DNA from: a phage
Sequence record: PZ490076.1
DNA: 40,032 nt
Direction: 5' to 3' (one strand)
A program made the translations under genes and the position numbers. The notes beneath the pieces are model-generated. The model did no database searches, had not been told where the DNA came from, and saw only the letters and a program-made list of their open reading frames with translations. Shown here in pieces: positions 2,315 through 39,387 of the stretch (its first letter is position 1; every line of letters begins with the position of its first letter).

Positions 2315-2337
2315 CTTCCCTATAGTGATAGTTAAGT
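2315..2337 (-). promoter_or_regulatory. Phage RNAP promoter (phiOR-like), downstream of the large terminase gene
   Basis: Minus strand CTTAACTATCACTATAGGGAAGACC; matches the family consensus ACTAAACTATCACTATAGG. Confidence 0.65.
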
Positions 2338-2431
2338 CCAAACTCCTTATAAAACAGTAGGTTAGACTGGTAGTAACTATAGGTTACTAACTGCGTATTA
2401 ATTCAGTTTTCGCCTATAGTTATTCATTCAG

Positions 2432-4219
2432 CTAGTGGAACGTAACGTAGGACCCTAGTCCAAGCTCGTCGTCCGTATCGTGAGTTACCCGGACCCCATT
2501 GTCCCAGAACTCAGTGTGGATGGACTCGAAGCCTTTCCGTGGGTTCTCCATCTGTTCTTCCAGCCACTCCTCAGTGACTTCACGTTCGCCTTTGTTGGCA
2601 TCCTTCGCCATAGACTCAACGAAGAACTGTACACCGATAGCCAGCGCATCAAGTCGGTCATCGTGTGCCAATGCTCCACGTTCACGAGAGATACGTGTCA
2701 TCTGGTAGAAGAGAGAGTAGATAGGATTACGAACACCATCCTTATCAGAGGCAGACTGGTAATCTTGGACGATAGCAGCAGCGTTGATGATAAGTCGGTG
2801 AGACCCCATGATAGGCTCCAGAACGTCACAGATGCGGAGCTCCTTCTGACCCTTACTCTTCACTTCAGTTACAGCAGCAGGATGAATACGGGAAGCTACA
2901 GGCTTGAATAGCTCAAGGTACATCCCATCACCGAAGTTACCCTCAATGACGTATTCGTTGACCTTCCACTTACGACCAATCTTAGCTAAGGCTTCCAGAG
3001 TAGAGTCTTCATAGCCACCTCGCATACCGCCAACTTCCATAGCGAAGATGTAGCCGTTTAGCTGATACAGTACCGCATAACCAGTTTCATCCTTACCACG
3101 ACCACTAGGGTCAATGACTAGAATCTTCTGGGTGTACGAACTGAAGGCAGAACCTACAGTCTGATACGTGTGGTATGAGTCACCCATGAGTCCAACGTTA
3201 GGAACGTCCTCACGCTTGTTCTGAGGGTTAGGAAGCCATTGGTATACCATTGGGCTAGACGCTGGGTCCAAGTCGGCTACGATAAGGTCACGGAGCTTCA
3301 GAGGGTACTTCTCGGCATCACTCAGGTTAGGGTTAAGCATGAACTGTAGAGCGAAGCCAGCTTTACCATAGGACAGCTCACGTTCCTTCAGGTCCGTATC
3401 ATCGAATCGTACCTCATCGGTCGGACGCCAGTAGAAGGACTCAGGGTCCTCTTCCAGTTCTGCCTGAAGCATAGGAGCCAGACGGTCGCCGTAAGACTGC
3501 CAGTCCTTCTTATCGCGTGGGTAGCGAGCGGGCCAGATGGTAGTGGTGTATCCACGGCCTTCCAGCTCACGATACAAGGTCATCTCGTTCTGAGGAGTAC
3601 CTAGATAGATGATTGTACCTCCCGGCTTCAGGATAGCGTCGAACTCTTTTACAAGCTCTGACAGACGGTCTCGTGCAGCCTGAGTCGCTGAGTTGTTAGG
3701 AACCTCAACGTCATCGGCAATCAGGATGTCAGCACGACTACCAGTCAACTGACCAGTGATACCAACGGACTTAACCGAAGGTGAGTGGTCTGGCTTGGCT
3801 GGTCCAACGTCGAAGCTGATAACCGCATCTCGCTGCCCCTGCTTAGGTTTGAGTTCCTGAAGCTGAGGCATGAGGTCGATGATTCGCTTGATGAAGATGG
3901 AGTTCGCATCGGCTCGTTCCTTTGAGGCCGACACAATCATGAACTTCAAGTCTGGGTTGTTCCATAGTTTCCAGACCACGAAACCACAGGTCAGAAACGA
4001 CTTACCAATACCACGGAAAGCCTGAAGGATGAAGCGGCGATTATCCCCAGCAGCCAGCTTCTTACACATATCTATCTGGCAGCGGGTTGGAACCGGAAGG
4101 CTAAGAGCTTTCCAGAGAACGAAGATGAAGAACACGAAGTCCTCTTTCATCCTTTTTGTCACGGCCTCATTACGCTCTTGCGGCGTTAACTGCATCAATT
4201 GCCTCCTGTTCAGTATCAA
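2432..4219 (-). CDS. Terminase large subunit (T7 gp19 homolog), 595 aa
   Basis: Translation aligns with T7 gp19 from [18 protein letters not shown] onward ([53 protein letters not shown]). Confidence 0.97.
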
Positions 4220-4556
4220 ATCGACCGAGCCAGCGAGGTTGTATAGCCTTCCACTTCCCGGTCTGTTTACAATAAGACACGCCTTTCGGCAGGTCCCTGT
4301 TCCTGTTGTTTTCAGCCTTGGTCACAGCCCGAAGGTTCTCAATCCTGTTGTCTGTCCGGTTGCGGTTGATGTGGTCAATCACAAGGTCTGATTCAAGGGC
4401 GAACTCAGGGTTGTGCAGCTTGTAGATTAGACGGTGTACGAGATACTTACGGTAGTTGACCGTAGTCCTAAGATAACCGTGGTTGTCCATTGAGCCGACT
4501 TCACGTCCCTTCCTGAACAACTTACCGTCTGAATACGCAAAGTCTGTCAACATCAT
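4170..4556 (-). CDS. Free-standing HNH homing endonuclease, 128 aa, between Rz and terminase
   Basis: HNH motif in translation ([19 protein letters not shown]...[26 protein letters not shown]); start overlaps the Rz stop (ATGA); no counterpart at this position in T7. Confidence 0.85.
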
Positions 4557-4999: not shown

Positions 5000-5381
5000 A
5001 TGTCTCCTTTAGCATTCTGCTATGAGTTGACTTAGCCCATTCCACGACTTCCTTCAGATTCTTAGTAGGAGCATGAGTTTCTTTCTTACCTCCCATCCTA
5101 ATGTCACCATAGTACATAGTTACACCTTGACGTTTAGCAAACCTAGAGTATACGCCTTTAGGTAGTTCCCTAGAGGATACAGTGTTAGCCTTGTTTGCGC
5201 CTTTAGGTATGCACCTAAGGTTTGACAGTTCGTTATTCATAGGATTCCTGTCAATGTGGTCTATGACGTAGCCATCTGGGATAGGACCGTAGGCTTCCTC
5301 CCATAGTAATCTATGAACCCCATGAACCTTACCATTGCGAGTAACCTTCCAGTACCCACCACTTATGTAAGCGTCTTCCAT
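4980..5381 (-). CDS. Free-standing HNH homing endonuclease, 133 aa, between small terminase and Rz
   Basis: HNH motif (GKVHGVHRLLWEEAYGPIPDGYVIDHIDRNPMNNELSNLRCIPKGANKAN); strong RBS AAGGAGGT 5 nt upstream of ATG. Confidence 0.85.
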   Translation of the reverse strand: MEDAYISGGYWKVTRNGKVHGVHRLLWEEAYGPIPDGYVIDHIDRNPMNNELSNLRCIPKGANKANTVSSRELPKGVYSRFAKRQGVTMYYGDIRMGGKKETHAPTKNLKEVVEWAKSTHSRMLKETYGISKI

Positions 5382-5396
5382 ATAACCTCCTTAGTG

Positions 5397-5438: not shown

Positions 5439-5443
5439 AACAC

Positions 5444-9273: not shown

Positions 9274-9296
9274 GTTTCCTATAGTGATAGTTTAGT
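9274..9296 (-). promoter_or_regulatory. Phage RNAP promoter (phi17-like) upstream of the tailspike gene
   Basis: Minus strand GGACTAAACTATCACTATAGGAAACTGG; the gp16 TAA stop codon lies inside the promoter. Confidence 0.7.
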
Positions 9297-12200
9297 CCTT
9301 GATGTGGATACCTTGTTCCTCAAACGTTCCCAGTAGCAACTTCTGAGTAATCGGGTCGTTAGGAACTAGTTCACGGAACGTATTATACATCCCGGTCATG
9401 TAGTCACGCTCGTTGACGCGAGTATCAGCCTTGAGGTAGCCAGCCAGGTTGTAAGCAGAAACGCCAACGTTAGCAGCATATCCGAAAGCTGGAACCTGCT
9501 CCAAGAAGTTACCAACAACATTCATCACAGGGTCACTTGTAGCTGCACCAAACGTGATGGCACGTTCAGGCTTCTCTGTAGGCGAACGAGGTAGGATAGA
9601 CGAACGGAGCATCTTAGTGTCCTCATACCCAGCTATACCCCCAAGAAGGTTAGCTACCCCAAGTGGTCCACCAAGGTGTGAACTACGTGATAGAGCTGCA
9701 TATCCAATCATCGTCGGATCTAGAGCTTGCTTGAGGTAGTCACGGTCTCGACCATCCTGCATAGCGTAAGCCTTGACATGAGCCTGAGCCATGTAGTAGA
9801 TACCAGCAAGACCCATAGACATCACAGTGGACAGGGCAGCGTCCATCGCTCGGTTGTTCTTCGTGGCGTTATAGAAGGTACGCATGGTTCGCCCATTGAT
9901 GGACTTGATGACGAAGTTCTTAAACTGAAGGACAGTCTTAGCGATAGGACCATAAGCCTTGGCGTCCATGTTGGACAGCTTATGAGGACGGAGTAACGTT
10001 TCGTCAGCGATGGTATCACCCATACGCCACAGGTCCATAGCCCTTGGGTCCTGACTGAACGCCTTCTTATCCTTGATGGTGTACTTCCCGTCTGGACCAC
10101 GAGTCACTGACTCACGGATGAGGGACTTAATGCCCTTCCACTGCTCGTCAGAGATACCAGCGGTCTTAAGCCAGCGGTCATCGAACTTACGCTTACTACC
10201 AGTCAGGCTATGCTCCACGATGTCAGACAGGAAGCCTTGACGTCCAGCATCTAACAGGTAGTTGGTCGTACCGTTGAGGACTTTAGTGAACGGAGAGCGT
10301 ACTGCAAGTTCGCCAGTGTAATACTTGGCAGTCCCCAGAGCTGTAGCTGTACCACGACCGAGGTCACTGTAAGATCGCAGACGGTCAATGACATCCTGTT
10401 TAGACGGACGGATTGAGTCATCAAGTTCCTTACCGAAGATAACATTGTGCAGGTCCTTAATCTCTGAGGCCCCAACCTTCTTGTTACGGAAGGCTAGGTC
10501 ACGGAAAATTGGGACTCCATGCAGCATTGCACGAACGTTGCCACGAGCCAGCATACCACCAATCTCCGTTAAGTTCTGAACACCCATGTAGGCATTCTTA
10601 GCGAAGAACGATAGGTCTGTCATTGTGCGCATCACGGTAGCGAAGGCTGCATCATCAGCACCATCACGTCGAGAACGACCAGTTAGAATCTTCAAGGTGT
10701 CACGTAAGGTAGATACTTCACCTTTCAACTTACCGTCATCCCCAGCCTTGTTCATCATGGTCTCAACCAAGTCCTTCATGTCCTTCGTGGTCTTTCCTGT
10801 ACCAGCCATGATAGCAATATCGCCATTAACTCGACGGTTGTAGGCTGGAAGAATCTTATCCATGTCGTACTCACGCAGCTTGTTTACACTGAAGGTCTCA
10901 CCATTAGGCAGGGTAATCTCCACGTCATTATCAAACAGGTTACGAGCCTCAAGGAAGTTGTTATTCTCCAGACCTACCAGACCGTTGATGTTCTCTTCCA
11001 TTACTGATGAACGTTCGAACTGCTCTGTATGGGAGATACCGTAAGCCTTATCGTTGGCGTACTTATCGACTGCCTTAGCCAGCTCCTCAGGAGTCATCTT
11101 AGGGTTCTCAGCCAGTAATGCATCTTCCAGTCTCTGCTTGACGTGTGGACGTGATGCATATCCTGCCAGCCATGACTGTTTGATAGCATTCTGGAGACCT
11201 TCAGCCCCACCAAGCATCTCAGTGTACATCTGCTTCATCTTACTGCTGTAGACGACAGGTACATAAGACCCTTTGAAGCGACTTCCTGGGAAGATGTTCA
11301 CAGCCTTATGGTTCCCGAACATTGCAGGGTTCTCCATCATCTCACGCTTAGAGTCCAGAACTTGCTTCATAATGTCGTGGACCTTAAGCTCTTTAGATGT
11401 AAGCTGAGCTTTAAGCTGACCTGAGGTGTCCTCGATAGCAAGAGTTACACGTTCATAGACGTCCACACGCTGAGCTGAGCGGTCACGCCAGAACTTAAGG
11501 GAATGCAACGGGTCTTCCAGAGCTTCTGTTATAGCGTCATTCAAGTCGTTGTACGCCCTGTGGTCGATGGCACGAAGGCGCTCGAACGTATCCGAAGATG
11601 TGGTCCCGATTTTGCCTGAGGCCCCTGACTGCATACCAGTTGGTGAACGCACTAAGTCAGCTGCAAGTCCACGAATCTCAGGGTTCTCTGACCGAAGCAG
11701 CTTCATGCCAATCTCAGTCAGCCCACCAAGGTTCACACCAGCAGCGGCACGTTCAGGATCAATCACTTCGTCAAAGACCTTACGTGTCTTAGGGTTCAGA
11801 GGGTTCTCACCAATCAGGATTGAACCATCCTCCAGTCGTACACTACCCGGCTCATTCGGAACGTCAGCGAACTTAACGCCTTGATGACTAAAGGTCTCCT
11901 CACCTTCTTGAATAGGTAGACGAGACAGGTCCTGACCATCAACGTTACGGGCTGTCTCACGAGCTTCCAGACGTGTGGCTGGTCCAGCGAACTCGTTAGT
12001 GTTACGCCCTAAGGCTCTGCCTAAACCATCAGCGATAGCAGTCATACCTCCGCCGAAGAGAGCACCGCCAAGGATAGCCTCAGCCACATGAGCATCGCCA
12101 CCAGCCACTGAGGTACGGGACATCTCTGATACACCAGCAAGTGCTCCAGATTGAGCAGCCACGGTGAACATCTTGTTGACCAGCTTGCCACCCTTACCAA

Positions 12201-13179
12201 TCTGCCCAGCGATAGGAACGTAGGTCAGAGGATCCACACCAGCGCCAATCACACCAGCAGCTAGCTGAGCACCAGTCCCAGCCTTGGCCTTCTCTTGGTC
12301 CAACTTCTGGTTCTCAAGCGCCAAGTTAATAAGCTCGGTCAGGTTCTGAGGGGAGCCACCAGTAATGACACCGTAATACTGAGGGAGAACTCCAGCGTTA
12401 CGAATCTGGTCCAGCTCCTCACGAGACCACTTATGGTTGTTCCAGCGGGTAGGGTTGAACACATCGCCAATGACATCAAGTGAGTCCTCGGTCTGACCAG
12501 CGCGGATAGCCATGCCGACCATAGAGTTCTTCACTTCAGCTTCTGTAGCCGCACCGAAACCGAACCACGTAGAGCGATCCTCTCGTTCCTGCATGGTCTC
12601 GCCAGTAGACTTATAGAACATCTCACCGAACGATTCGTTGGGAGCTTCAGGTGCTTGACCCTCAATGTTTAGACCAGCAGCGGTCGGAAGGTTCTCGCCC
12701 AGAGCTACTTTAGGTTTAGCCTTGAGTCCTTCCGTGAGTGCGTCAAATACGTTAGCGCTTACTGGTGGAGTCTTTGGGCTAATGCCATTGAGTGCTCGCG
12801 CGACTCCCTTCTGATAGACTTCAGGGTCGTACCGGGAGCCTGTCTCATGGAAGCTGATAGCTTGAGCCAGAGAAGACAGGGTGTCAGGGTCCGATAGGTC
12901 GAGACTCTGGGTAGCTGGAATACCAGTTGCAGCCACCACTGAGTCGATATAAGCCTTAGTTTCGTTCTCGTTAGGAGGTGCCCATCGGTTGATAATCTTC
13001 TCGATGGAGTCATAACCTTGGCGACCGTAGGACAGCAGGTTTTTACCTAAAGCTCGGACGCCAGACTCTGGACTATCGAAGGTGACGAATGAGCCATCAT
13101 CTCCAGTCATTCCTTCCCATTGGTCCTTACTTACCCGGATGTTACCCGGATTGTTATTGCGAATACCACGAGTCGCCAT
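9292..13179 (-). CDS. Internal virion protein D (T7 gp16 homolog), 1295 aa, with a divergent N-terminal domain
   Basis: Extensive collinear similarity to T7 gp16 over most of the length (e.g. RLEARETARN, SPTGMQSGASGK, MENPAIFGN, DKAYGISH, RRVNGDIAIM, LSRSS.LG.PL); the first ~130 aa (MATRGIRNNNPGNIR...) do not resemble the T7 lytic transglycosylase motif. Confidence 0.95.
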   Translation of the reverse strand: MATRGIRNNNPGNIRVSKDQWEGMTGDDGSFVTFDSPESGVRALGKNLLSYGRQGYDSIEKIINRWAPPNENETKAYIDSVVAATGIPATQSLDLSDPDTLSSLAQAISFHETGSRYDPEVYQKGVARALNGISPKTPPVSANVFDALTEGLKAKPKVALGENLPTAAGLNIEGQAPEAPNESFGEMFYKSTGETMQEREDRSTWFGFGAATEAEVKNSMVGMAIRAGQTEDSLDVIGDVFNPTRWNNHKWSREELDQIRNAGVLPQYYGVITGGSPQNLTELINLALENQKLDQEKAKAGTGAQLAAGVIGAGVDPLTYVPIAGQIGKGGKLVNKMFTVAAQSGALAGVSEMSRTSVAGGDAHVAEAILGGALFGGGMTAIADGLGRALGRNTNEFAGPATRLEARETARNVDGQDLSRLPIQEGEETFSHQGVKFADVPNEPGSVRLEDGSILIGENPLNPKTRKVFDEVIDPERAAAGVNLGGLTEIGMKLLRSENPEIRGLAADLVRSPTGMQSGASGKIGTTSSDTFERLRAIDHRAYNDLNDAITEALEDPLHSLKFWRDRSAQRVDVYERVTLAIEDTSGQLKAQLTSKELKVHDIMKQVLDSKREMMENPAMFGNHKAVNIFPGSRFKGSYVPVVYSSKMKQMYTEMLGGAEGLQNAIKQSWLAGYASRPHVKQRLEDALLAENPKMTPEELAKAVDKYANDKAYGISHTEQFERSSVMEENINGLVGLENNNFLEARNLFDNDVEITLPNGETFSVNKLREYDMDKILPAYNRRVNGDIAIMAGTGKTTKDMKDLVETMMNKAGDDGKLKGEVSTLRDTLKILTGRSRRDGADDAAFATVMRTMTDLSFFAKNAYMGVQNLTEIGGMLARGNVRAMLHGVPIFRDLAFRNKKVGASEIKDLHNVIFGKELDDSIRPSKQDVIDRLRSYSDLGRGTATALGTAKYYTGELAVRSPFTKVLNGTTNYLLDAGRQGFLSDIVEHSLTGSKRKFDDRWLKTAGISDEQWKGIKSLIRESVTRGPDGKYTIKDKKAFSQDPRAMDLWRMGDTIADETLLRPHKLSNMDAKAYGPIAKTVLQFKNFVIKSINGRTMRTFYNATKNNRAMDAALSTVMSMGLAGIYYMAQAHVKAYAMQDGRDRDYLKQALDPTMIGYAALSRSSHLGGPLGVANLLGGIAGYEDTKMLRSSILPRSPTEKPERAITFGAATSDPVMNVVGNFLEQVPAFGYAANVGVSAYNLAGYLKADTRVNERDYMTGMYNTFRELVPNDPITQKLLLGTFEEQGIHIKD

Positions 13180-16540: not shown

Positions 16541-16590
16541 AAGGGCCTATAGTCCCTATAGTGATAGTTAAGGTAAATCTATAGGCCCTT
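16541..16590 (-). promoter_or_regulatory. Perfect 12-bp inverted repeat (AAGGGCCTATAG / CTATAGGCCCTT) enclosing the phi13-like promoter; candidate RNA hairpin / RNase III site (T7 R13 position)
   Basis: Plus strand 16541-16552 aagggcctatag and 16579-16590 ctataggccctt are exact reverse complements with a 26-nt loop. Confidence 0.4.
16551..16573 (-). promoter_or_regulatory. Phage RNAP promoter (phi13-like)
   Basis: Minus strand CCTTAACTATCACTATAGGGACTATAGG. Confidence 0.65.
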
Positions 16591-19637: not shown

Positions 19638-19677
19638 CAAAAAACCCCTCAAGCACCCGAAGGCACCCAAGGGGTTT
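19638..19677 (-). terminator. Tphi-like intrinsic terminator immediately after the capsid 10B stop
   Basis: Minus strand AACCCCTTGGGTGCCTTCGGGTGCTTGAGGGGTTTTTTG: GC-rich hairpin plus T6; closely resembles T7 Tphi (..CCCCTTGGGGCC...GGGTCTTGAGGGGTTTTTTG). Confidence 0.8.
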
Positions 19678-20957: not shown

Positions 20958-20980
20958 TCTCCCTATAGTGATAGTTTAGT
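20958..20980 (-). promoter_or_regulatory. Phage RNAP promoter (phi10-like) upstream of the capsid gene
   Basis: Minus strand GGACTAAACTATCACTATAGGGAGACC; best match to the family consensus, +1 GGGAGA as in T7 class III promoters. Confidence 0.8.
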
Positions 20981-21945: not shown

Positions 21946-21968
21946 TGTTCCTATAGTGATAGTTTAGG
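21946..21968 (-). promoter_or_regulatory. Phage RNAP promoter (phi9-like)
   Basis: Minus strand GCCTAAACTATCACTATAGGAACAAC; the portal TAA stop lies inside the promoter. Confidence 0.7.
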
Positions 21969-24705: not shown

Positions 24706-24766
24706 CTTGAATCTCCTCTTTAAGTTAAGACTAAAATCTATCTTATAGTCATATCTTAGGTCCTAA

Positions 24767-24789
24767 AGTCCCTATAGTGATAGTTTAGT
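24767..24789 (-). promoter_or_regulatory. Phage RNAP promoter (phi6.5-like)
   Basis: Minus strand CACTAAACTATCACTATAGGGACTTTAGG. Confidence 0.7.
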
Positions 24790-26642: not shown

Positions 26643-27243
26643 CTTTCTGTATTCTCCTATTACTAGGAGTGTCGGACTATATCATCAGCCTTTGAGTTGA
26701 CTGTCTGGCGCTTCGGGTAACGAGGGAGTCTCACCCTCGGCCCTACTCCTTTCGGATAGTCTCTACGCCTTCCACTCTCTAATCCACTTACACGCGGCAG
26801 AGAACGTAACACCAAACTTCTCACCTAAGTGTGTTCCTGTACATCCAGTCTCCAACCAGTATTCCTTCGCGGACTCTTTACGGTCAGCGTAGCGTTCTCT
26901 GTTTGTCTTGACTGTATGCTCAGACCCTTCTAGTAACTGGAGATGCTCTGGATTACAGCATGCCCTGTTCCTACACTTGTGGTCTACTTCATACCCTTCT
27001 GGTATATCTCCGTGCTGTTCCTTCCAGACTGTCCTGTGGTACATCTCTAGGACACCGTTAGTCCTCTTTCGGAAATAACCATCAGCATTAAGTTTGTGTG
27101 ACGTAGGGATGATACAACCACTCTCTGTGGTCGCAAGGATTAACTTCTTGCCTCTCATATATCCTCCCTATGGCTTGGCTCGGTATTGCCCTAGAAGGGT
27201 TTCACCGAGTTCACCAGATTTAATGTGCACAATGAGATAGTTT
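26643..27243 (-). mobile_element. Group I intron (about 601 nt) interrupting the DNA polymerase gene, carrying an HNH endonuclease ORF
   Basis: Exon 1 ends ...AYMAWVH (U at the splice site), exon 2 resumes DEIQV (intron ends in G); possible P1 pairing between exon GUGCAU and intron GUGCAC; group I R-like (AGAGACUA) and S-like (GAUAUAGUCC) elements in the 3' part. Confidence 0.75.
26763..27158 (-). CDS. Intron-encoded HNH homing endonuclease, 131 aa
   Basis: HNH motif (EVDHKCRNRACCNPEHLQLL); GGGAGGA RBS 5 nt upstream; wholly inside the predicted intron. Confidence 0.8.
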   Translation of the reverse strand: MRGKKLILATTESGCIIPTSHKLNADGYFRKRTNGVLEMYHRTVWKEQHGDIPEGYEVDHKCRNRACCNPEHLQLLEGSEHTVKTNRERYADRKESAKEYWLETGCTGTHLGEKFGVTFSAACKWIREWKA

Positions 27244-29259
27244 ATGCACCCATGCCATGTATGCAAAGTCTCCTTCCCAGCCGTGGACATACCCGGCCTC
27301 TTCGAGCATACGTTCAGTCTCGACAATCCAGTGCTTACAGACTACCGCACCATCGCCTTGAAGTAAGGCGTTCAGTGCTGAGTGTGGAGACCGGATGTGG
27401 ATACGGCGACCGTCAAGTCCACGCAACCAACGGCGTTTCCACTTGACGATATTCTCTCCGTCAACCCACTTAGAGTCTGAGATTAACGTACTACTCACAG
27501 CTTCCCTGAGGTCTTTGATGGCTGGTGTACCCTCAATGAATTTCTTCATGAGAGCTGAACCTTCCTTCTTCCCGCCGCCTACTATCAGTCCAATCTTAGC
27601 GGCCCCTGCACCATACAGGAACGCATAGATGAACGTCTTAGCGTTGTTACGGAAAGCATCATGGTCGTGGCTCGACTTATCGCGTGGGACGTTAGGCGCT
27701 AACCCAGCGTTTACTGCGTTGGCCCAGTGGATATCACCTTCGACCACAGTCTTCGCATAGGCACCACCATCAAACGGAGCCGCTCGGTTCCCCAGACAAC
27801 GAAGCTCAAGACCTGAAGCATCCACACCCACTTGAATCCAAGGGTCTGGCTTACCATCCGTCTTGTTCCAAGCTGCACCGAAAGCACCACGGCAAATCTC
27901 ACCATACGGAGCACCGTTAGCAGGGACCTGAGCCATGTTTGGTGAACTGTGAGTCGCACGTCCGGTTACTGCCCCGCATGGGTTGATTGAACCGTGCATA
28001 CGTCCGTCTGGACCTACAAGTTTCAACCATGCGTTCTTACCTTCAGCAGCCTGACCTATGCGCTTCTGGACTACCAGATACTCACGGACCAGCTCTACGC
28101 AAGCCTGAGCCTCTGCGTCCGGTAACTTAACGTGTTCTAACGTCTCGTCATCGACTACAGGTTTCCCTGTGTCAGTGAAGTCCACAGGCTCCCAGCCACG
28201 CTCCATCAGGACTTTCGCTAAGTGGTCTCCGCTTCCCGGATTAAACTCAACGTAAGTGATTGGCGTGAACGGTGCTCCTTCCATCGTGTCTCGTGAGTCG
28301 AACTCGCAAGGCTCCAGACCTAAGCGTTGAGCTTTGTTCTTCGGCTTCTTGAATACTGACCCGACCTTAGGATACACGACTCGCGGATACTTCGGGAGGT
28401 CCTTTCCTGTCCGTGGGTGCCTGAAGAACTCCTTGCCACCCTTCGGTGCATACCAGCTACCGAAAGTCGAACGCAGCTTGTCCAACAGCTCTGCACGTTT
28501 GACGGTTAGTTCACGATATAAGCCTTCGACCATCTCGGTGTTCATCGGATAGCCGTTACGCTCCATCTTCGCACAGGTCCACGCAGCATCATGTTCCAGA
28601 CGCAACGCATAAATCTGGTCGAGAGCGAACTGTTCAGACTGGAAGTAATACTTGTCAGTCAGGAACTTCTTGAACAACGCCAGTGTGACCACAACGTCTT
28701 GAACGTTATAGTCCAGCATCTCCTGAGACGGGAACAGCCATTCGTCCCCAGCCTTATATTCGATACCTTCAGCCTTGCACTTGGCAACGTAATCGTGTTT
28801 GTACTCACCTTTCATCTCACCGAGACGATAGCCCCAAGCCTCAAGAGACTGGCGTCCCATCATCTTAGGTGGCAGACGACCAGCTTTCACTGCGCCCATG
28901 TCTGAGAACTTAATGTTTGGATACATCAAGCGTCCCAGCACCAAGGTATCAATCATCTTGTGTTTCGGGAAGTTAAAGCGTTTCCCAAAGTACAGACGCT
29001 TCAGCTTGTCAATAGCCGGGACGTCATAGTTGATACCGTTGTGGAATACCAGCATACCATCAGGTGATGCGGCAATCTCTTCCACCTTCTGTACATACTC
29101 TTTGAAGCCACCGACGATACCGACCATCGGAGCTACCCCATACTTAAGGGTCTCATTCGACTCGGCGTTAATCAGGACCCCACAGTGAAACTGGGAGACT
29201 GTATCAAGGAGACCGTTGGTCTCTATGTCAGAACCCCAGATACTCTTAAGGTCAAACAT
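27244..29259 (-). CDS. DNA polymerase, exon 1 (T7 gp5 homolog), about 672 aa
   Basis: Strong similarity to T7 gp5 (MEGAPFTPI..VEFNPGS.DH, NGAVTGRATH, DASGLELRCL, AKTFIYAFLYGAG, GDFAYMAWVH); start placed at MFDLKSIW (GGAGGA RBS), not the upstream track start at 29295. Confidence 0.9.
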
Positions 29260-29279
29260 GGTTAATCCTCCGTTTAGTC

Positions 29280-29318
29280 TAATCATAAAGGCCACTCGAT
29301 GTGAATGACCTTGAGTCT
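29280..29318 (-). promoter_or_regulatory. Candidate RNase III processing site (copy B of the conserved element), 21 nt upstream of the DNA polymerase start
   Basis: Minus strand TAGACTCAAGGTCATTCACATCGAGTGGCCTTTATGATTAGAC. Confidence 0.4.
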
Positions 29319-31249: not shown

Positions 31250-31272
31250 CATCCCTAAGGTGATAGTTTAGG
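31250..31272 (-). promoter_or_regulatory. Variant phage RNAP promoter (CACCTTAGGG instead of CACTATAGG) upstream of gene 4
   Basis: Minus strand GCCTAAACTATCACCTTAGGGATGGG; upstream half matches the consensus, the -4/-3 positions deviate. Confidence 0.4.
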
Positions 31273-32878: not shown

Positions 32879-33576
32879 TAGAAGTCGTAATCGCCACCAG
32901 AGTTGGACTCGGAACCACCTTCGGAACCATCGTCACCGAAGTCATCAGACCCGAAGTCACCATCGGTTGACGCTTTGTAGCCTGTACCGAGGTCTTCATC
33001 ATCACCCCAACCACCATCGCCACCTGCACCATCGCCTTTCCACTCCTTCAGTTCTACCAGAAGGCAGGACTCAAGTTGGAGCTTAACGCTTGCACCAGTA
33101 GCAGCGTTCCACTTAAACGGCAGGACTTTAAACTTGACCTTCAGCTTTGAGCCAGCGCCAATATTCGGGACGTCACGGATTAACTTAGCATCGGTGTCGT
33201 AGAACCGTAATATGATAGGCTCTGACTTACCATCCTTCAGGTAAGACGCGAAGCATTTAAACTTCAGGGTAACAGTACCATCACCATTCTCAATCCACGG
33301 CATGTCGCCTTCTCGTGGTTCAATAGGCTTCTTGCCACGCTGAACCTGAGGCGGGTTCTTCTCGTGGTCTGCAAGTGCTTTCGCATACGCATCGTCGTGA
33401 ATCTTCTGTAAGACATCAATCATCTTACGGACCTTCGGGTTGCTCAGGTCGAATGTCAGGTTGACTTTGTGTTCACCACGCTCGTTGAACTTGGTGTCTG
33501 CTTTGTTAAGCCATGCGTAAGGCTCAACGATACCAGCTACCGGAGTGGTGAAAGTCTTCAGTTGCTCTTTAGCCAT
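32878..33576 (-). CDS. Single-stranded DNA-binding protein (T7 gp2.5 homolog), 232 aa
   Basis: Similarity to T7 gp2.5 (GGSKLKVK...WN.A.GASVKLQLES), acidic C-terminal tail ending in F. Confidence 0.9.
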   Translation of the reverse strand: MAKEQLKTFTTPVAGIVEPYAWLNKADTKFNERGEHKVNLTFDLSNPKVRKMIDVLQKIHDDAYAKALADHEKNPPQVQRGKKPIEPREGDMPWIENGDGTVTLKFKCFASYLKDGKSEPIILRFYDTDAKLIRDVPNIGAGSKLKVKFKVLPFKWNAATGASVKLQLESCLLVELKEWKGDGAGGDGGWGDDEDLGTGYKASTDGDFGSDDFGDDGSEGGSESNSGGDYDF

Positions 33577-33616
33577 TGGTGTAAATCTCCTAATTTAAAA
33601 GTTACGAACTGGACGT

Positions 33617-33639
33617 CTGTCCTACAGTGATAGTTTAGG
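33617..33639 (-). promoter_or_regulatory. Phage RNAP promoter (phi2.5-like), variant CACTGTAGG
   Basis: Minus strand GACCTAAACTATCACTGTAGGACAGACG; the gp2 TAA stop lies inside it. Confidence 0.55.
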
Positions 33640-33793
33640 TCTCAGGACGAATCCGTCCGACCACAAACCCAGCGTCCTCATACTCTTGGGACTTCAGGGT
33701 AGCCTCTTCAAGAGACTTTGCGTACACCGGAACCTCGAAGGACTGAATGTGACCCTCAAGCTCCACGATGTACTTCTTCTCTACGTCAGTCAT
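33635..33793 (-). CDS. Host RNA polymerase inhibitor (T7 gp2 homolog), 52 aa
   Basis: Hand translation [52 protein letters not shown] resembles T7 gp2 (..[35 protein letters not shown]..); below the 60-aa track cutoff. Confidence 0.6.
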
Positions 33794-33968
33794 AAACCGC
33801 GCTCCTTCCATTGGTTGTATAACGTGATGTAGTCCGGGTTGAGAGTCTTCTCATACATCTCCCGGCACCACTCACTTGGTTTTACCATATTCCACCTCTA
33901 TCGCCCAATACATTAAACGCAATAATGCACCTACTCCTGCACAGATTAATCCGAAGTACAGAATATCA

Positions 33969-34280
33969 TTAAGCATAACACTTACCTTTATGTTGGTCGA
34001 ACAGCTCCTGATAGAAGGCGGCTTTGTTCAGGTCCTTCTCCATAGTAGCCAGCTCGGACTTCTTACCAGCCCGGAGTCGATACTTCAGGACGTTACCCAT
34101 GCAGAAACCACGGAACTCACTGACAGTCATGGACCGGGCGATAATCTCAATGGATTCCACACCGTCAAAGACCTGATAGTGGGACGGCTTGCGTACACCA
34201 TCGTCTGTATTAGGCGGGTTGCTACAGCTACATACTTCAGCCCCGTTCCATATCGTACAGCCGGGAGCATGCTTAGTCAT
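33969..34280 (-). CDS. T7 gp1.7 (nucleotide kinase) homolog, short form, 103 aa
   Basis: C-terminal 70 aa nearly collinear with the T7 gp1.7 C-terminus (KPSHY..F...E.IE.IARSMTV..F.G.C.GN.LKYRLRAGKKSELA..EKDL.KA.FY.ELF..HK.KCYA); N-terminal part much shorter than T7. Confidence 0.7.
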   Translation of the reverse strand: MTKHAPGCTIWNGAEVCSCSNPPNTDDGVRKPSHYQVFDGVESIEIIARSMTVSEFRGFCMGNVLKYRLRAGKKSELATMEKDLNKAAFYQELFDQHKGKCYA

Positions 34281-34533
34281 TGAATACCTCCTTCACGAAC
34301 TCAACGAACAGGCGAACGCGAGGCCACTTAGTGTAGACCACAGGTACGTTGGTCTCACGCTTCTGGCGAGCCTCCTCCGCTTTGCTCGGAGTAATCAGAG
34401 CGAATACTGTAGGTGATAACTTAACGGCCTTCCCGAAGTAGCCCAGCTTCTCGTTGCGCTTAATGCAAGCGAACGGGTTGTTGGACAGGTGGAAGGTATC
34501 GGTATAACGGTTGAACATTAAGTTCTTAGACAT
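34273..34533 (-). CDS. Hypothetical protein, 86 aa (T7 gene 1.6 position)
   Basis: ORF directly downstream of the phi1.5/1.6-like promoter. Confidence 0.45.
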   Translation of the reverse strand: MSKNLMFNRYTDTFHLSNNPFACIKRNEKLGYFGKAVKLSPTVFALITPSKAEEARQKRETNVPVVYTKWPRVRLFVEFVKEVFND

Positions 34534-34557
34534 AGAGTCTCCTTAGGTTGTTGATGG

Positions 34558-34580
34558 TTGTCCTATAGTGATAGCTTAGG
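34558..34580 (-). promoter_or_regulatory. Phage RNAP promoter (variant, AAGCTATCACTATAGG)
   Basis: Minus strand CCCTAAGCTATCACTATAGGACAACC. Confidence 0.6.
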
Positions 34581-34616
34581 GTCAGGCTGGTTCCCCCAAA
34601 CGATAGCTTGCTAGCA

Positions 34617-34653
34617 CAAAGCAAAGAAACCCAGCAGTCCTAAGACCACTGGG
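34617..34653 (-). terminator. Intrinsic terminator downstream of the ligase gene (T7 TE position)
   Basis: Minus strand CCCAGTGGTCTTAGGACTGCTGGG (10-bp stem, 4-nt loop, two G-U pairs) followed by TTTCTTTGCTTTG. Confidence 0.6.
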
Positions 34654-34664
34654 TTGACATTTAG

Positions 34665-35768
34665 TTAGCTCTTAATGGTCGGATTGTCTTCAGTTCCACG
34701 CCAGCACTTGAAGCTAGGGTGACGAAGTGAGCCATCTGGGAACCGCTCCATGAAGAGGACTTCACACTGCCAGCCTTCGTATGGGTTGGTCTTCTCGGTC
34801 CCATCCTGAATAACCACAGGGCCACCAGCCAAGGTATAGCCACTAGATTCAGCGACTTTAGCTGTGAATTCGTCCTTCTGTTCTTCAGTCAGGCCACAGG
34901 TGTTAACCACCATGCCGTCCTCAAGTAGCACCTCGAAGCCGATGACCTTACCTTCGTTCGCCTTACCCTGAGTCCCCCACACGAGGCCACACACTGTCCC
35001 GTCTATGGTCTCCTCAGGCTTCATTTTCCACATGCCAGACTTCTTGCCACGCTTGTATTTACCAAGCGGGTCCTTGACTACCAGACCCTCGTGTCCTTCC
35101 AGACGCTTCTCTTCGTACAGGGAGCTGAGCGACTCAAGGTCATAGACCGTGTGTGACTCAGACAGAACCCAGTCGATTTCCGGGAAGTATTTCTGGAGGA
35201 GAGGGACGATAGCTTCGGCCTTCAGGCGTGTGACGCTATGAATAGGACCTTCGGCTTTTGGGTCGTTGATGACGTTAAGGTCGATGACCCCGTAGACGAC
35301 CACTCGTAGGGACTCAGGGCTAATCTGGAAGGGAACCTTGTTAGACTTCTTGGTCTCCATATCTGCCTTAGGGTTCATGTTCCACTTGTAGTTCTTGCGG
35401 TCAGACCACATGGTGCGGATAAGACCGGAAGACGTGTTGAAGTCCACGCCTTTGACCATCACCTCGCCATCAATCATTAGGCCAGAGACCTCATGTCCTG
35501 CTTGCTTCAGGAACCAGCGCCAGTCTCCACAGTTTGTTAATTCGGTAGGACTACCATGTTCTGACTTCAGATGCTGAAGCGCTGGGAGAGGTTTAGACTC
35601 ACGGCTCAACCATTGAGTCTCACCAGTAGGGAAGACCGGGAGATTCAGGCGCACACCATCGTACTTCACTTCAGCTTCCAGAGACCCGGCTGCTTCCAGT
35701 GCTTTCTTAACGCCAGACTCAGAGTAATCTACAGCGCGGTGCGGGTTAGTTTTGATAGTCGTTGTCAT
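34665..35768 (-). CDS. ATP-dependent DNA ligase (T7 gp1.3 homolog), about 367 aa
   Basis: KxDG adenylation motif (EVKYDGVR), collinear similarity to T7 ligase (IKTNP..AV, MIDGE.MVKGVDFNT.SGL.RT, EGHEGL.VKDP...YKRGKKSG.WKMKPE, DGSLRHPSF...RGTEDNP); start placed at the second ATG overlapping the gp1.2 stop. Confidence 0.9.
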   Translation of the reverse strand: MTTTIKTNPHRAVDYSESGVKKALEAAGSLEAEVKYDGVRLNLPVFPTGETQWLSRESKPLPALQHLKSEHGSPTELTNCGDWRWFLKQAGHEVSGLMIDGEVMVKGVDFNTSSGLIRTMWSDRKNYKWNMNPKADMETKKSNKVPFQISPESLRVVVYGVIDLNVINDPKAEGPIHSVTRLKAEAIVPLLQKYFPEIDWVLSESHTVYDLESLSSLYEEKRLEGHEGLVVKDPLGKYKRGKKSGMWKMKPEETIDGTVCGLVWGTQGKANEGKVIGFEVLLEDGMVVNTCGLTEEQKDEFTAKVAESSGYTLAGGPVVIQDGTEKTNPYEGWQCEVLFMERFPDGSLRHPSFKCWRGTEDNPTIKS

Positions 35769-36031: not shown

Positions 36032-36036
36032 AGCGT

Positions 36037-36215: not shown

Positions 36216-36244
36216 GGTGTAGCTCCTGATTGAATGAGTTAGGG

Positions 36245-36286
36245 TTAATCATGAAGGCCACGACTCTGAGTCATGACCTTGAGTCT
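36245..36286 (-). promoter_or_regulatory. Candidate RNase III processing site (copy C of the conserved element; T7 R1.1 position) between the promoter and gene 1.1
   Basis: Minus strand TAGACTCAAGGTCATGACTCAGAGTCGTGGCCTTCATGATTAA. Confidence 0.4.
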
Positions 36287-36308
36287 AATCCTATAGTGAT
36301 AGTTTAGG
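36286..36308 (-). promoter_or_regulatory. Phage RNAP promoter (phi1.1-like)
   Basis: Minus strand CCCTAAACTATCACTATAGGATTAGAC. Confidence 0.7.
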
Positions 36309-36383
36309 GTTAACCTCTTCTGCGTTGGATTAAAGTGAATACTGCTAGTGCTCCCAGCCACAAGGCCAGTAACTGTAAGTCTG

Positions 36384-36599: not shown

Positions 36600-36613
36600 A
36601 ACTCTCTCTCCTG

Positions 36614-39295
36614 TTAAGCGAATGCAAAGTCTGAAGACAATATGTCCTCGATATTCAGTTTACCTTTCTTCGGTAGCTCAGGCAACTTGTCGCGCTGGCT
36701 CTCGTGAAGCTGGTATTCGAACTGCTCGTAGAAGTCAAGCAGCACATCGTTGTCGCGGTAGGTCTCGACCATCGTCTCACGGACACCACGGAACAGATAT
36801 TCAGCGTCAGCCGGGATGGTCCCGAAGCTATCGTGAATCACTGCGAATGACATCACGCCATACTTGCGGTGCGTGTGGACTACAGTCTTGCGGAGGTGGC
36901 TACCATCTTGTGAGTGGACGAAGTTCGGGCTAATTCCTGACTCCTGCTTGTGTTTGTCCAGCTCTTTCTTCGTACCTCTGTTGACGGTAGGCTGAAGGTT
37001 GAATGACCCTAAGAACATCAGGTTCAGACGAGTGGTATCCTTCTTGCGGTATTCCTGCCAGACCGGGAAACCATCAGGTGTTACCCAGTGTACCGGAAGG
37101 CAAGGCTTCAGGATTTCTCCAGTCTTCTTGTCCTTCACCTCAGCAGCCAGCAGCTTGGCAGCGCCTTGAAGCCACTTCATCGCGTCAACCGCAGCAACTA
37201 CGGTCACACTCACAGCTTCCCAAATCATCTTAGCCATGAAGCGAGACGCTTGGCTAGGCTCGGTGAACATAGCGCCAGACCCTGAGTCAATCGCTGGCAT
37301 CACGATGTCCTCGTAAACTTGGTCTGCGAAGCCGTACTCTTTCGACCCGTATGCCAGAGTCATGACTGAACGCTTAGTGACCTTACGTGACATCCCGTAT
37401 GTCAGCCACTGACGGGCCAGCTCTCGTGTCCCCAGCTTGATACGTTCGGTAATCTCACCAGTTTTCTTGTCCTCGTGAGTGACCATCTCGTTGTCAGTAC
37501 CGTTAATCAGCAGGACTTTAAGCTCCTCCTCAATGCGGTCAGACACAATGCGGTAGATGTCTTGTACCATACCGGATGGCGTCAGGTTTACTGCATGCCC
37601 ACCGATGTGGTCACGAAGCATCGCACTGAAGTGCTGAATACCAGAGCAGGACCCATCGAACGCTATCGGCAGCGAGCAGGAGTAAGACAGGCCGTGGTGC
37701 ATTACGCCAGCATACTCGAAGCAGAACGCGAGGAAACAGAACGGAGAGTCTAACTTGCCCCACCACTCAATACTATCCATCGGTGCCTTAGCAGCAGCCA
37801 TGATGTTTTCGTGGTTGTCTTCCACCCACTTGATGCGCTCCTCGAAGGTGACTTTATCGACACCCGCGCAGTTTGCACCGTGGACCTTCAGCCATTTGAA
37901 ACCGTCAGCACCAATAGGCTTGCCGACTGCCAGAGTCAGGAGACCCTTCTGCATGTCGTTACCCTGAGGGTTGAACATCGGCACAGCGTAGACGCGCCCT
38001 CGCCAATCCATGTTGTACGGGAACCAGATGGCCTTGAACTGAGAGAACTTGTTAGCTTGGTTAACGATAAAGCTCAGTGACAATCTGCGCGACTGTCTGG
38101 CCTTCTCGCGGCGATAGATACCAGCAGCAGCCTTCTTCCATGCCTTGAGTTCCTCCTCGGTCTCACCAGCATAGTCCTCAGGCTTCAGCGGCTCCATCTG
38201 AGGGATGTCATCAATAGGTGTGTTGTTCAGCTTCTCGACCATGTTCACCACGTCCAATACCTTCTTGTTCACTTTCCAAGGTGTATTCTGGATGATATTC
38301 ACAGCGTCATAGACTTCAGGCATGTATACGTCTTCATAACGTGCTACCGCAGACTTAGACCCTAAGCGAATCAATGGTAACGGTCTGCGACCTTTGGCCC
38401 AGTACCCACCGCCTACGACACCAGTCCACGGCTTAGGTGGAACGACGCAAGGCTGGTAGACTGGAGCGATACCCGCAAGGCTGAATCCTCGTTGTGCCAT
38501 CTTCTTGACCCAGAAGTCTGACAGGTGGACCATCTCTACGTCAGTCGCTGCATTGCCAGCACCGTACCGCTTAAGCTCGACCAGTTGTGTTGACTGGATG
38601 ACAATCTCGAGCATCTTGATGCCAACGTGGACAGCCTCTGTAGGACTCCAAGTCCCCCACGCATCTTCCAGTTGACCTTGCTCCAGCATGGACGCCTCGA
38701 CCGCTTGCATGTAGGCTTTCTTGTAGGACGCCCCGGCCCGCTTATTCAGGTTATCAGCTATCGCCTTCTTGAAGTGCTCTTTCTCTTTGTCACGGATGCG
38801 ACCGAAGCGGATTTCGTCCTCAAGTGTGCGACCTATCGCGGAGGCCATAGGTGTAATTGGTATCCCTTCGGGCTTGACCAGCTTGGAGAGTATGACCTTC
38901 AGTATGATAACCGCAGCGGACTCACAGGAGATGCGCATAGAGCGGTCCTTGACGGCCTTCTCTTCAGTGCTCAACATGGTGAACGCTACGCTAGGACGAG
39001 AGGTTGACAGCTTTCCGTCTGGACCTTCATGCCACTCCCTGACGGCTTGCGCAATCTTAGGGACCAGAGTCTGCATCAAAGGCTTGGCGACCTGATTGTC
39101 TGCCAGTTCCCCGCGCTCAGTCTGTCGCTCAAGGTTTTTGATGAAACGTCGCTCGCCTTCAGTGTATGCCTCATGCTCAAGCTGAAGCTGTTTAACTGCA
39201 AGGTCTTGCCCGTAGTGGTCGGCCAGCAGGTTAAACGGCTCAATGGCGTTCGACACATCAGAGAAGTCGTGTTTGTCAATAGAGATGACGCTCAT
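36614..39295 (-). CDS. Single-subunit DNA-dependent RNA polymerase (T7 gene 1 homolog), 893 aa
   Basis: Collinear with T7 RNAP including C-terminus ...DILSSDFAFA (T7 ...DILESDFAFA), RGRVYAVPMFNPQGNDM, SGIQHFSAMLRD, PNFVHSQDGSHLRKT, LIHDSFGT. Confidence 0.98.
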   Translation of the reverse strand: MSVISIDKHDFSDVSNAIEPFNLLADHYGQDLAVKQLQLEHEAYTEGERRFIKNLERQTERGELADNQVAKPLMQTLVPKIAQAVREWHEGPDGKLSTSRPSVAFTMLSTEEKAVKDRSMRISCESAAVIILKVILSKLVKPEGIPITPMASAIGRTLEDEIRFGRIRDKEKEHFKKAIADNLNKRAGASYKKAYMQAVEASMLEQGQLEDAWGTWSPTEAVHVGIKMLEIVIQSTQLVELKRYGAGNAATDVEMVHLSDFWVKKMAQRGFSLAGIAPVYQPCVVPPKPWTGVVGGGYWAKGRRPLPLIRLGSKSAVARYEDVYMPEVYDAVNIIQNTPWKVNKKVLDVVNMVEKLNNTPIDDIPQMEPLKPEDYAGETEEELKAWKKAAAGIYRREKARQSRRLSLSFIVNQANKFSQFKAIWFPYNMDWRGRVYAVPMFNPQGNDMQKGLLTLAVGKPIGADGFKWLKVHGANCAGVDKVTFEERIKWVEDNHENIMAAAKAPMDSIEWWGKLDSPFCFLAFCFEYAGVMHHGLSYSCSLPIAFDGSCSGIQHFSAMLRDHIGGHAVNLTPSGMVQDIYRIVSDRIEEELKVLLINGTDNEMVTHEDKKTGEITERIKLGTRELARQWLTYGMSRKVTKRSVMTLAYGSKEYGFADQVYEDIVMPAIDSGSGAMFTEPSQASRFMAKMIWEAVSVTVVAAVDAMKWLQGAAKLLAAEVKDKKTGEILKPCLPVHWVTPDGFPVWQEYRKKDTTRLNLMFLGSFNLQPTVNRGTKKELDKHKQESGISPNFVHSQDGSHLRKTVVHTHRKYGVMSFAVIHDSFGTIPADAEYLFRGVRETMVETYRDNDVLLDFYEQFEYQLHESQRDKLPELPKKGKLNIEDILSSDFAFA

Positions 39296-39364
39296 ACTTA
39301 AAGTCCTTGTTATTAGTCTTTCACTTAAAGTCTCTTTGGTCTTTCACTTGGAGTCTTAGACCTT

Positions 39365-39387
39365 GAGTCCTATAGTGATAGTTAAGT
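39365..39387 (-). promoter_or_regulatory. Phage RNAP promoter located directly upstream of the RNAP gene
   Basis: Minus strand GACTTAACTATCACTATAGGACTCAAGG, 70 nt upstream of the RNAP start codon. Confidence 0.6.

Follow-up and report, generated by a model that had tools for sequence, protein, structure and literature searches.

The 40,032-nt stretch of DNA that we analysed (the window; PZ490076.1) is a Kayfunavirus genome, assembled as a circle and presented in reverse complement. It shares 99.9-100% identity with Escherichia phage BUCT788 and about 91-95% with K1F, and its tailspike open reading frame, at 1064 aa, is equal in length to the K1F endosialidase; judged by sequence, the phage is essentially BUCT788, a K1F-like coliphage. 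Gene 1 (36614..39295, minus strand) encodes a single-subunit DNA-dependent RNA polymerase (RNAP) of 893 aa whose alignment with T7 RNAP covers both proteins from end to end (E = 0). Allowing up to three mismatches over the whole window, we found 11 matches to the 19-mer ACTAAACTATCACTATAGG, all on the minus strand, with low coordinates 2319, 9278, 16555, 20962, 21950, 24771, 31254, 33621, 34562, 36290 and 39369. The original prediction, which had also counted eleven minus-strand copies of a phage-RNAP promoter, gave these coordinates minus 4 and so included positions +3 to +6. The sites point the same way as the genes and occupy gene boundaries that correspond by synteny to annotated promoters of the genus; K1F, EcoDS1, BUCT788 and Ro45lw have the same promoter sites at syntenic positions. 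All 11 are annotated as phage promoters, together with the TE and Tphi terminators, in the EcoDS1 GenBank record (EU734172), and the sites are likewise annotated in the Ro45lw and CR8 records. The BUCT788 record, near-identical to PZ490076.1, lacks promoter annotation, which the present analysis now supplies.

Leftmost among the phage promoters of the genome is that of gene 1 (ACTTAACTATCACTATAGGACTC, -17 to +6; 39365..39387, minus strand, as are all features in this paragraph), 75 nt before the RNAP ATG, with counterparts in K1F (2474), EcoDS1 (2244, annotated "promoter phi"), BUCT788 and Ro45lw. Downstream of gene 1 and of the small gene after it, a promoter in the phi1.1-type position (CCTAAACTATCACTATAGGATTA, 36286..36308) is syntenic with K1F 5552 and EcoDS1 6034 (annotated). 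The ligase gene is directly followed by a TE-like early terminator, a stem-loop with a T-run (34628..34655), at a position matching that of the TE annotated in EcoDS1, and just downstream of it lies the phi1.6-type promoter (CCTAAGCTATCACTATAGGACAA, 34558..34580), which has G at -12 and an identical sequence annotated as phi1.6 in EcoDS1 and Ro45lw. The phi2.5-type promoter (CCTAAACTATCACTGTAGGACAG, 33617..33639; phi2.5 in EcoDS1 and Ro45lw) has G at -3 and holds the TAA of the gene 2 homologue at -15 to -13, and the promoter before the primase/helicase gene 4 (CCTAAACTATCACCTTAGGGATG, 31250..31272; annotated in EcoDS1 at 11107) reads CCTT at -5 to -2 (C at -4, T at -3) and contains the TAA of the gene 3.7 homologue. 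Further along come the phi6.5-type promoter (ACTAAACTATCACTATAGGGACT, 24767..24789), an exact consensus copy annotated phi6.5 in EcoDS1 and Ro45lw; the phi9-type promoter (CCTAAACTATCACTATAGGAACA, 21946..21968; phi9 in EcoDS1), containing the TAA of gene 8 (head-tail connector); and, before the major capsid gene, the phi10-type promoter (ACTAAACTATCACTATAGGGAGA, 20958..20980; annotated in EcoDS1 and Ro45lw), whose GGGAGA at +1 to +6 is that of T7 phi10. About 150 nt after the capsid gene there is a Tphi-like phage-RNAP terminator, again a stem-loop with a T-run (19646..19663), and a terminator is annotated at the equivalent position in EcoDS1, Ro45lw, T7 and K11. The remaining sites are the phi13-type promoter (CCTTAACTATCACTATAGGGACT, 16551..16573; phi13 in EcoDS1); the phi17-type promoter before the endosialidase tailspike gene (ACTAAACTATCACTATAGGAAAC, 9274..9296; phi17 in EcoDS1 and Ro45lw), which contains the gene 16 TAA; and the phiOR-type promoter downstream of terminase gene 19 (ACTTAACTATCACTATAGGGAAG, 2315..2337; phiOR in EcoDS1), some 580 nt short of the collapsed terminal repeat.

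Four promoters (33621, 31254, 21950 and 9278), rather than the three first proposed, contain the stop codon of the upstream open reading frame, in each case a TAA at -15 to -13. The TAG stop of gene 9 lies at -21 to -19 of promoter 20962; a 25-codon open reading frame, probably not a gene, likewise ends at -21 to -19 of promoter 36290. The variant copies (31254, 33621 and 34562) are as originally described, but the site at 16555, listed as strong, has two upstream mismatches, at -17 and -14.

By chance 0.01 matches to ACTAAACTATCACTATAGG would be expected against the 11 observed, and none of 100 shuffles reached 11. A scan of both strands with a 28-column position-weight matrix, the check proposed with the original prediction, returned the same 11 sites and no others, at 34.0-41.1 bits, with a wide gap to the next match (12.6 bits); no site in 50 shuffles exceeded 10.6 bits. 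Invariant in all 11 promoters are -16, -15, -13, -11 to -5, -2, -1, +1 and +2, and 10 of the 11 have A at -12. The element is of the K1F type, about 23 bp with a CACTATAGG core and ACTAT at -12 to -8, which places it in the ACTAT class of PMC11880802 Table 2. As predicted, the consensus is distinct from those of T7, T3, SP6 and K11, whose promoters we read from their own genomes, and has ACTA at -12 to -9 where T7 has CGAC; the T7-like core was also rightly recognized, although the shared TCACTATAGG extends from -8 to +2 and not from -7. The exact consensus was matched only in Kayfunavirus loci. Among relatives, differences occur at 7 of the 627 positions in the promoter 19-mers and at 976 of 6844 in the flanking 100 nt on either side, a contrast whose p-value is nominal because the three genomes compared are related and share ancestry. 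Site-specific non-consensus bases are conserved as well, which shows that selection acts on the site-specific weak variants.

The gene 1 product is identical to K1F gp1 at 882 of 893 residues (99%) and to the purified Ro45lw RNAP at 839 of 893 (94%). Its specificity loop, TTRLNLMFLGSFNLQPTV (36983..37036, minus strand), spans residues 754-771, corresponding to T7 744-761; relative to T7, R746, N748 and Q758 are kept and the changes are Q754S, R756N and I761V. The genome that carries the promoters also encodes the K1F-type loop (N748, S754, N756, Q758 and V761 in T7 numbering), the substitutions being those of the T7(K1F) graft in PMC11880802 Table 2, and Ro45lw RNAP has the same residues at 746, 748, 754, 756, 758 and 761. 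The original prediction had placed the loop differently. The segment it quoted, TVNRGTKKELDKHKQESG (residues 770-787), is correctly matched to T7 TINTNKDSEIDAHKQESG, but this stretch is T7 760-777; the glutamine of KQESG, taken for Q758, is Q774, and the residues that read bases are further upstream, in TRLNLMFLGSFNLQ. Because the segment was mis-registered, the prediction was right that R756 is changed and Q758 kept only by coincidence, and it was wrong that N748 is changed. With the numbering corrected the latter claim goes no further, and the proposed match between changed residues and changed bases breaks down at -11/-10, which differ from T7 despite an unchanged N748. Towards the N-terminus, DGKLSTSRPSV (38987..39019, minus strand) aligns with T7 93-101 (KAKRGKRPT) as the equivalent of the AT-rich recognition loop; after it come 11 inserted residues that T7 lacks. 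The function of that loop is known from the T7 structure, and we infer that its equivalent here may read -17 to -13. In a PDB search whose top matches were all T7 RNAP, no solved structure of a K1F-type RNAP came up.

Experiments on near relatives bear on what the 11 sites do. Run-off transcription in vitro by the cognate RNAP has already been shown for Ro45lw, whose purified enzyme initiates at G (+1) from the minimal promoter ACTTAACTATCACTATAGGGA (JBC 2025, PMC12272871); the gene 1 promoter described here is that same sequence from -17 to +2. Placing the K1F loop (Q754S/R756N/I761V) in T7 RNAP switches the enzyme to a promoter with ACTAT at -12 to -8 (Temme 2012, PMC3458549), on which it is active while orthogonal to the T7 promoter (PMC3458549; PMC11880802 Table 2), and K1F appears under its own name as a cluster in published specificity networks and is in standard use as an orthogonal part. 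For near-identical systems, then, the literature shows that the promoters are active, where +1 lies and that the loop determines specificity. Our own observations on the 11 sites are of sequence, statistics, synteny, conservation and loop identity, and by analogy the PZ490076.1 enzyme would be active at all of them, the three variants and the gene 1 site included, with ACTAAACTATCACTATAGGGA as the predicted template sequence for its gp1. We consider it very probable that the 11 repeats are the complete promoter set of the T7-like single-subunit RNAP that this Kayfunavirus encodes.

Taken by itself, the sequence presents just a 19-23-bp repeat that is dispersed through the genome and preserved by purifying selection, and the copies might be signals for packaging or replication, hot spots of recombination or sites bound by a DNA-binding protein of the phage; T7 sites of the phiOL/phiOR type are also tied to replication and concatemer processing. 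Such a non-promoter role is nevertheless highly improbable, given that the -8 to +2 core equals that of T7 promoters, that T7 and K11 promoter positions are matched gene for gene, that on this very sequence a 94%-identical RNAP starts transcription at the G predicted, and that recognition can be transferred by a loop graft. We give equally little credence to a new promoter specificity class, an undescribed RNAP/promoter pair with N748 and R756 both replaced. The consensus is indeed unlike those of T7, T3, K11 and SP6, and a K1F-type structure was absent from the PDB search, but consensus and loop are identical to those of K1F, EcoDS1 and Ro45lw, K1F is a published network cluster and standard part, and N748 is not replaced; identity to K1F gp1 and to the K1F promoter set refutes the idea.

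It is also unlikely, if less decidedly so, that only the eight consensus-like copies function and that 31254, 33621 and 34562 are decayed, inactive relics. These three are the lowest mismatch-based matches and are altered at -4/-3 or -12, where changes affect T7 promoter strength. At each variant position, however, K1F, EcoDS1 and Ro45lw have the same base, against 9-22% divergence in the flanks, the variants occupy the positions of the naturally weaker T7 class II promoters phi1.6, phi2.5 and phi3.8, and they still score 35 bits.

If the 11 repeats are the promoter set of the phage RNAP, the early region including gene 1 would be transcribed by host RNAP, and newly made phage RNAP would bind the 23-bp promoters in duplex form, the specificity-loop beta-hairpin contacting -12 to -7 through the major groove and the N-terminal loop reading -17 to -13, before melting the TATA segment and initiating at the leading G of GG(G/A). 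The promoter layout is T7-like: weaker, non-consensus promoters before genes 1.6, 2.5 and 4 (the DNA-metabolism region), consensus promoters before genes 6.5, 9, 10, 13 and 17, a phiOR-type site near the right end, and TE-like and Tphi-like terminators after the ligase and capsid genes; the strength classes themselves we infer. Specificity relative to T7 would come mainly from R756N (with Q754S and I761V), paired with ACTAT in place of CGACT at -12 to -8, and the R746/-7 and Q758/-8 pairings are retained from T7.

The consensus is that of K1F and Kayfunavirus, and the promoter/RNAP pair is already known as a specificity class. The finding is in this sense an ordinary one, since the K1F promoter type and loop have been annotated, engineered and biochemically tested: the pair is annotated in GenBank, serves as an orthogonal transcription part and figures in covariation studies, and in vitro characterization exists for an enzyme with 94% identity. 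The points that remain are modest ones, namely autoregulation of gene 1 and the reading of -11/-10 with N748 unchanged. The gene 1 promoter is not at the phiOL position that T7 and K11 have ahead of the host promoters, and it is conserved in Kayfunavirus and CR8. A one-residue/one-base picture of recognition is incomplete, as N748 is the same and yet -11/-10 is CT against GA in T7; a K1F-type loop that reads C at -11 and T at -10 with N748 unchanged implies that R756N, Q754S or both may re-set how residue 748 reads. We put forward only tentatively, having found no experimental study of either, that gene 1 is autocatalytic through its own promoter and that the loop reads -11/-10 in a context-dependent manner. 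Were this so, the promoter 75 nt upstream would make gene 1 a positive-feedback gene, phage RNAP could take over genome internalisation before gene 1 enters the cell, and recognition would follow a context-dependent rule unexplained by the T7 crystal contacts.

Compared with known systems, PZ490076.1 stands closest to K1F, EcoDS1, Ro45lw and BUCT788, which share its 11 sites with the same site-specific sequences; the specificity loop is the same in K1F and Ro45lw, and the TE and Tphi positions also match. Differences from these relatives are trivial: the gene 4 promoter has C at -17 where K1F has A, a loop-distal RNAP residue is R773 where K1F has K, and Ro45lw carries an additional, twelfth site ahead of gene 5 and has A as the -2 base of the site preceding its gene 1. 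With T7, represented by its class II/III promoters and by the RNAP of the PDB 1CEZ/1QLN family, the phage shares a 23-bp promoter identical from -8 to +2 (TCACTATAGG), corresponding promoter positions (genes 1.1, 1.6, 2.5, 4/3.8, 6.5, 9, 10, 13, 17 and OR), the TE and Tphi terminators and an RNAP that can be aligned along its whole length and conserves R746, N748 and Q758. The promoters differ, however, at 8 of 9 positions from -17 to -9 (8 of 10 from -17 to -8), the T7 genome holds no site within three mismatches of the PZ490076.1 consensus, T7 has 17 promoters against 11, and T7 has phiOL near its left end where PZ490076.1 instead has a promoter directly upstream of gene 1. The T7-proper (Teseptimavirus) class, with TAATACGACT at -17 to -8 and an N748/R756/Q758 loop, does not accommodate a loop in which R756 is N, nor do the T3, K11 and SP6 types (ACCCT, GGGCA and GGTGA at -12 to -8) fit, as judged from a phi10 alignment and an SP6 genome scan. 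The engineered T7(K1F) RNAP/PK1F pair (Temme 2012; Segall-Shapiro 2014) has 754S, 756N, 761V and ACTAT, as in PZ490076.1, but keeps the T7 scaffold and T7 -17 to -13 (TAATA), whereas the natural promoters have (A/C)CT(A/T)A there and their RNAP differs in its N-terminal loop. Citrobacter phage CR8 (Caroctavirus) has an identical 11-promoter layout, pre-gene-1 and phiOR-type sites included, but its consensus is AAGGAAGGTACACTATAGG and its loop has K at 748 and a 753-758 segment one residue shorter, so that, with the layout the same and both loop and -12 to -8 different, it provides a case of natural covariation.

We have found eleven matches to ACTAAACTATCACTATAGG in the window at up to 3 mismatches, where 0.01 would be expected by chance, and all lie on the minus strand (low coordinates 2319, 9278, 16555, 20962, 21950, 24771, 31254, 33621, 34562, 36290 and 39369). 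The original prediction had described eleven minus-strand promoter copies, at coordinates lower by 4 that take in +3 to +6, and both this search and a position-weight-matrix (PWM) scan of both strands, with a matrix built on -22 to +6, bear out that count. The scan recovered exactly the same 11 sites at 34-41 bits and none other near their scores, the next match reaching 12.6 bits and the shuffle maximum 10.6; the number of matches and the gap in PWM score therefore indicate that the repeat family is real, complete and far beyond chance. There is no variation among the sites at -16, -15, -13, -11 to -5, -2, -1, +1 and +2. The motif TCACTATAGG spans -8 to +2 rather than -7 to +2 as first assigned, and the stop codon of the upstream gene falls within four promoters rather than three, with TAA at -15 to -13 in 33621, 31254, 21950 and 9278; at the phi10-type site the gene 9 stop is at -21 to -19. 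Since the annotations of K11 and the Citrobacter phage CR8 likewise show stop codons overlapping promoter 5' ends, such overlap is a general habit of the T7 group. The 12.6-bit match, a degenerate promoter-like copy (CCTAAGATATGACTATAAGATAG, 24738-24765, minus strand) situated 29 bp downstream of the phi6.5-type promoter, was rejected as a twelfth promoter: of the bases that are invariant in the 11 sites it lacks C at -11 and at -7 and G at +2, and with several such positions missing it is unlikely to be a promoter. The copy is also kept in K1F (17201) and EcoDS1 (17021), and could be the relic of a duplication or belong to the leader.

When compared with promoters taken from their own genomes, namely the phi10 promoters of T7, T3, K11 and CR8 and the SP6 promoter set, the window consensus differs at -17 to -8 and has CACTA(T/A)AG in common with them, as expected from the claim that it is distinct from those of T7, T3, SP6 and K11. 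The T7 and CR8 genomes contain no site within 3 mismatches of this consensus and, among the loci compared, the exact consensus occurs only in those of Kayfunavirus. The phage RNAP itself, the product of gene 1 (36614-39295, minus strand), is 893 aa long, aligns with T7 RNAP over its entire length, and is identical to K1F gp1 at 882 of 893 positions and to the Ro45lw RNAP at 839 of 893. We note that in the record of Escherichia phage BUCT788 the RNAP is given as a CDS of 744 aa (33489-35723) and promoter annotations are absent; the RNAP start in that record looks miscalled, because the 893-aa ORF of the window is full length against both T7 and K1F. In T7 numbering the sequence of the specificity loop is T745 R746 L N748 L M F L G S754 F N756 L Q758 P T V761; it retains R746, N748 and Q758 and carries the substitutions Q754S, R756N and I761V. 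It had been proposed that N748 and R756 were changed while Q758 was kept. N748 is in fact kept in the alignment and, although the statements about R756 and Q758 are both true, they were drawn from the wrong segment: TVNRGTKKELDKHKQESG corresponds to window residues 770-787 (T7 760-777), lies beyond the residues that read bases, and the Q within it is Q774.

In the T7 complex, R746 reads -7, Q758 reads -8, R756 reads the G opposite the -9 C, and N748 reads -11 and -10. Positions -7 and -8 and their residues (R746 and Q758) are the same here as in T7, and the change of C to A at -9 accompanies R756N. At -11/-10, GA in T7 is replaced by CT with N748 unchanged, and a simple residue-base code therefore fails at these two positions; it is possible that Q754S, or a repositioning due to R756N, helps to read them. 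The promoter half from -17 to -13 is (A/C)CT(A/T)A here versus TAATA in T7. The original prediction left the N-terminal loop out of account, and where T7 has its AT-rich recognition loop (93-101, KAKRGKRPT) the RNAP here has DGKLSTSRPSV and then an 11-residue insertion. This region (38927-39019, minus strand) is strongly different from T7, with R96L and K98S in T7 numbering and the insertion inside FTMLSTEEKAVKDRSMRIS, and we infer that its alteration pairs with the different -17 to -13 half. A literature search on residue-by-base contacts found nothing; the list of base-contacting T7 residues is that from the complex of Cheetham et al. 1999, as cited in PMC11880802.

The three loop substitutions are exactly those of the T7(K1F) graft (Q754S/R756N/I761V), whose composition we took from Table 2 of PMC11880802 and whose cognate promoter has ACTAT at -12 to -8. 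Temme et al. 2012 (PMC3458549) put the K1F loop in for T7 Q744-I761 and the K1F consensus in for -12 to -7, and found the resulting T7 RNAP to be active, with 17-fold induction, and orthogonal to other promoters; the same K1F pair was used again by Segall-Shapiro et al. 2014. In a 2025 NAR study (PMC11880802), K1F forms one of nine clusters in a specificity network whose dominant determinants are residues 748, 756 and 758 together with promoter positions -12 to -8. Takatsuki et al. 2025 (PMC12272871) purified the Ro45lw RNAP, gave ACTTAACTATCACTATAGGGA as its minimal promoter, and placed +1 at G by 5'-end sequencing; from -17 to +2 that promoter is identical to window sites 2319 and 39369. For near-identical systems, the experiments proposed with the original prediction are therefore in essence already published.

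The same 11 sites are present and syntenic in K1F (nearly base for base), EcoDS1 and BUCT788, and Ro45lw has these and one more, a promoter-like site (GCTTAACTATCACTGTAGG, 12445-12463 of its locus) before the DNA polymerase gene that is not in the window, K1F or EcoDS1. All 11 are annotated as phage promoters in the EcoDS1 record (EU734172), as an unnamed 'phi' upstream of gene 1, one after gene 1.05, phi1.6, phi2.5, one before gene 4, phi6.5, phi9, phi10, phi13, phi17 and phiOR, along with the terminators TE and Tphi; the Ro45lw and CR8 records hold similar promoter annotations, and the same CTWAACTATCACTATAGG repeats are given as promoters in a genome note from 2026 on a further Kayfunavirus. 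Compared with the window, the 19-nt cores of K1F, EcoDS1 and Ro45lw show 7 differences in 627 positions (1.1%) and the +/-100-nt flanks 976 in 6844 (14.3%); since these genomes are related by descent, the p-value of this comparison is nominal. The window, K1F, EcoDS1 and Ro45lw all have G at -12 ahead of gene 1.6, G at -3 ahead of gene 2.5 and C at -4 ahead of gene 4, -3 of the last site being T in the first three and A in Ro45lw (CCTA). That such site-specific deviations are kept argues against decayed copies and for maintained weaker promoters like those of T7 class II, which is how we would read the three variant sites from their sequence.

The window, in which every long ORF is on the minus strand, is 99.9-100% identical to BUCT788 (PV540240.1); its identity to coliphage K1F and to many further genomes of Kayfunavirus is ~91-95%. 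The two ends of the window share an overlap of exactly 127 bp (1-127 and 39906-40032); the assembly is therefore circular, at ~39.9 kb, and the overlap an assembly artefact. A single copy of the direct terminal repeat of 178 bp that K1F and EcoDS1 carry is present, at ~1737-1555, which places the physical genome ends there; the window is therefore circularly permuted, with the repeat collapsed. Stem-loops with T-runs are found on the minus strand at the TE position after ligase (34655-34628) and at the Tphi position after the capsid gene (19663-19646), and the promoter and terminator layouts of T7 and K11 are parallel to this one. We also note that an HNH/homing-endonuclease ORF (26763-27158) adjoins a 691-aa DNA polymerase ORF (27220-29295, both minus strand). 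In K1F, the annotation assembles gene 5 from two segments with a homing endonuclease between them, which points to a DNA polymerase gene that is split or holds an intron; a search of the window against Rfam at gathering thresholds gave no match, including no group I intron.

A predicted full-strength phage promoter (39365-39387, minus strand) precedes the RNAP gene by 75 nt and is kept in K1F, in EcoDS1 and, with A at -2 there, in Ro45lw. CR8 also has a promoter directly before gene 1, with its own consensus, whereas T7, K11 and SP6 are without a phage promoter at this position; T7 and K11 have phiOL ahead of the host promoters, and this genome has no phiOL-type site near its left end. Through the promoter before gene 1 the RNAP may feed back positively on its own gene, or the site may be a phiOL that has been relocated; a literature search on such a promoter returned nothing relevant. 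Folding of the leaders downstream of five promoters gave one significant structure only, in the phi1.1-type leader (z = -2.43), and none in the gene-1 leader. The phi1.1-type leader (~36247-36283, minus strand) contains a long hairpin, CUCAAGGUCAUGACUCAGAGUCGUGGCCUU, which is similar to R1.1, an RNase III processing site of T7, and which has no Rfam match. The motif GACTCAAGGTC of this leader also occurs after the transcription start of the pre-gene-1 promoter (39367-39357).

Lastly, the overall interpretation holds in part, in that these are promoters whose specificity is not T7-like; the loop numbering was wrong, and the promoter is not of a new type, this promoter and RNAP type being already known. 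CR8, from another genus, has the same 11-site layout as the window but differs in having K at 748, a rearranged 753-758 and AGGTA at -12 to -8. At the level of sequence CR8 is a natural covariation control, in which the loop and promoter positions -12 to -8 differ together.
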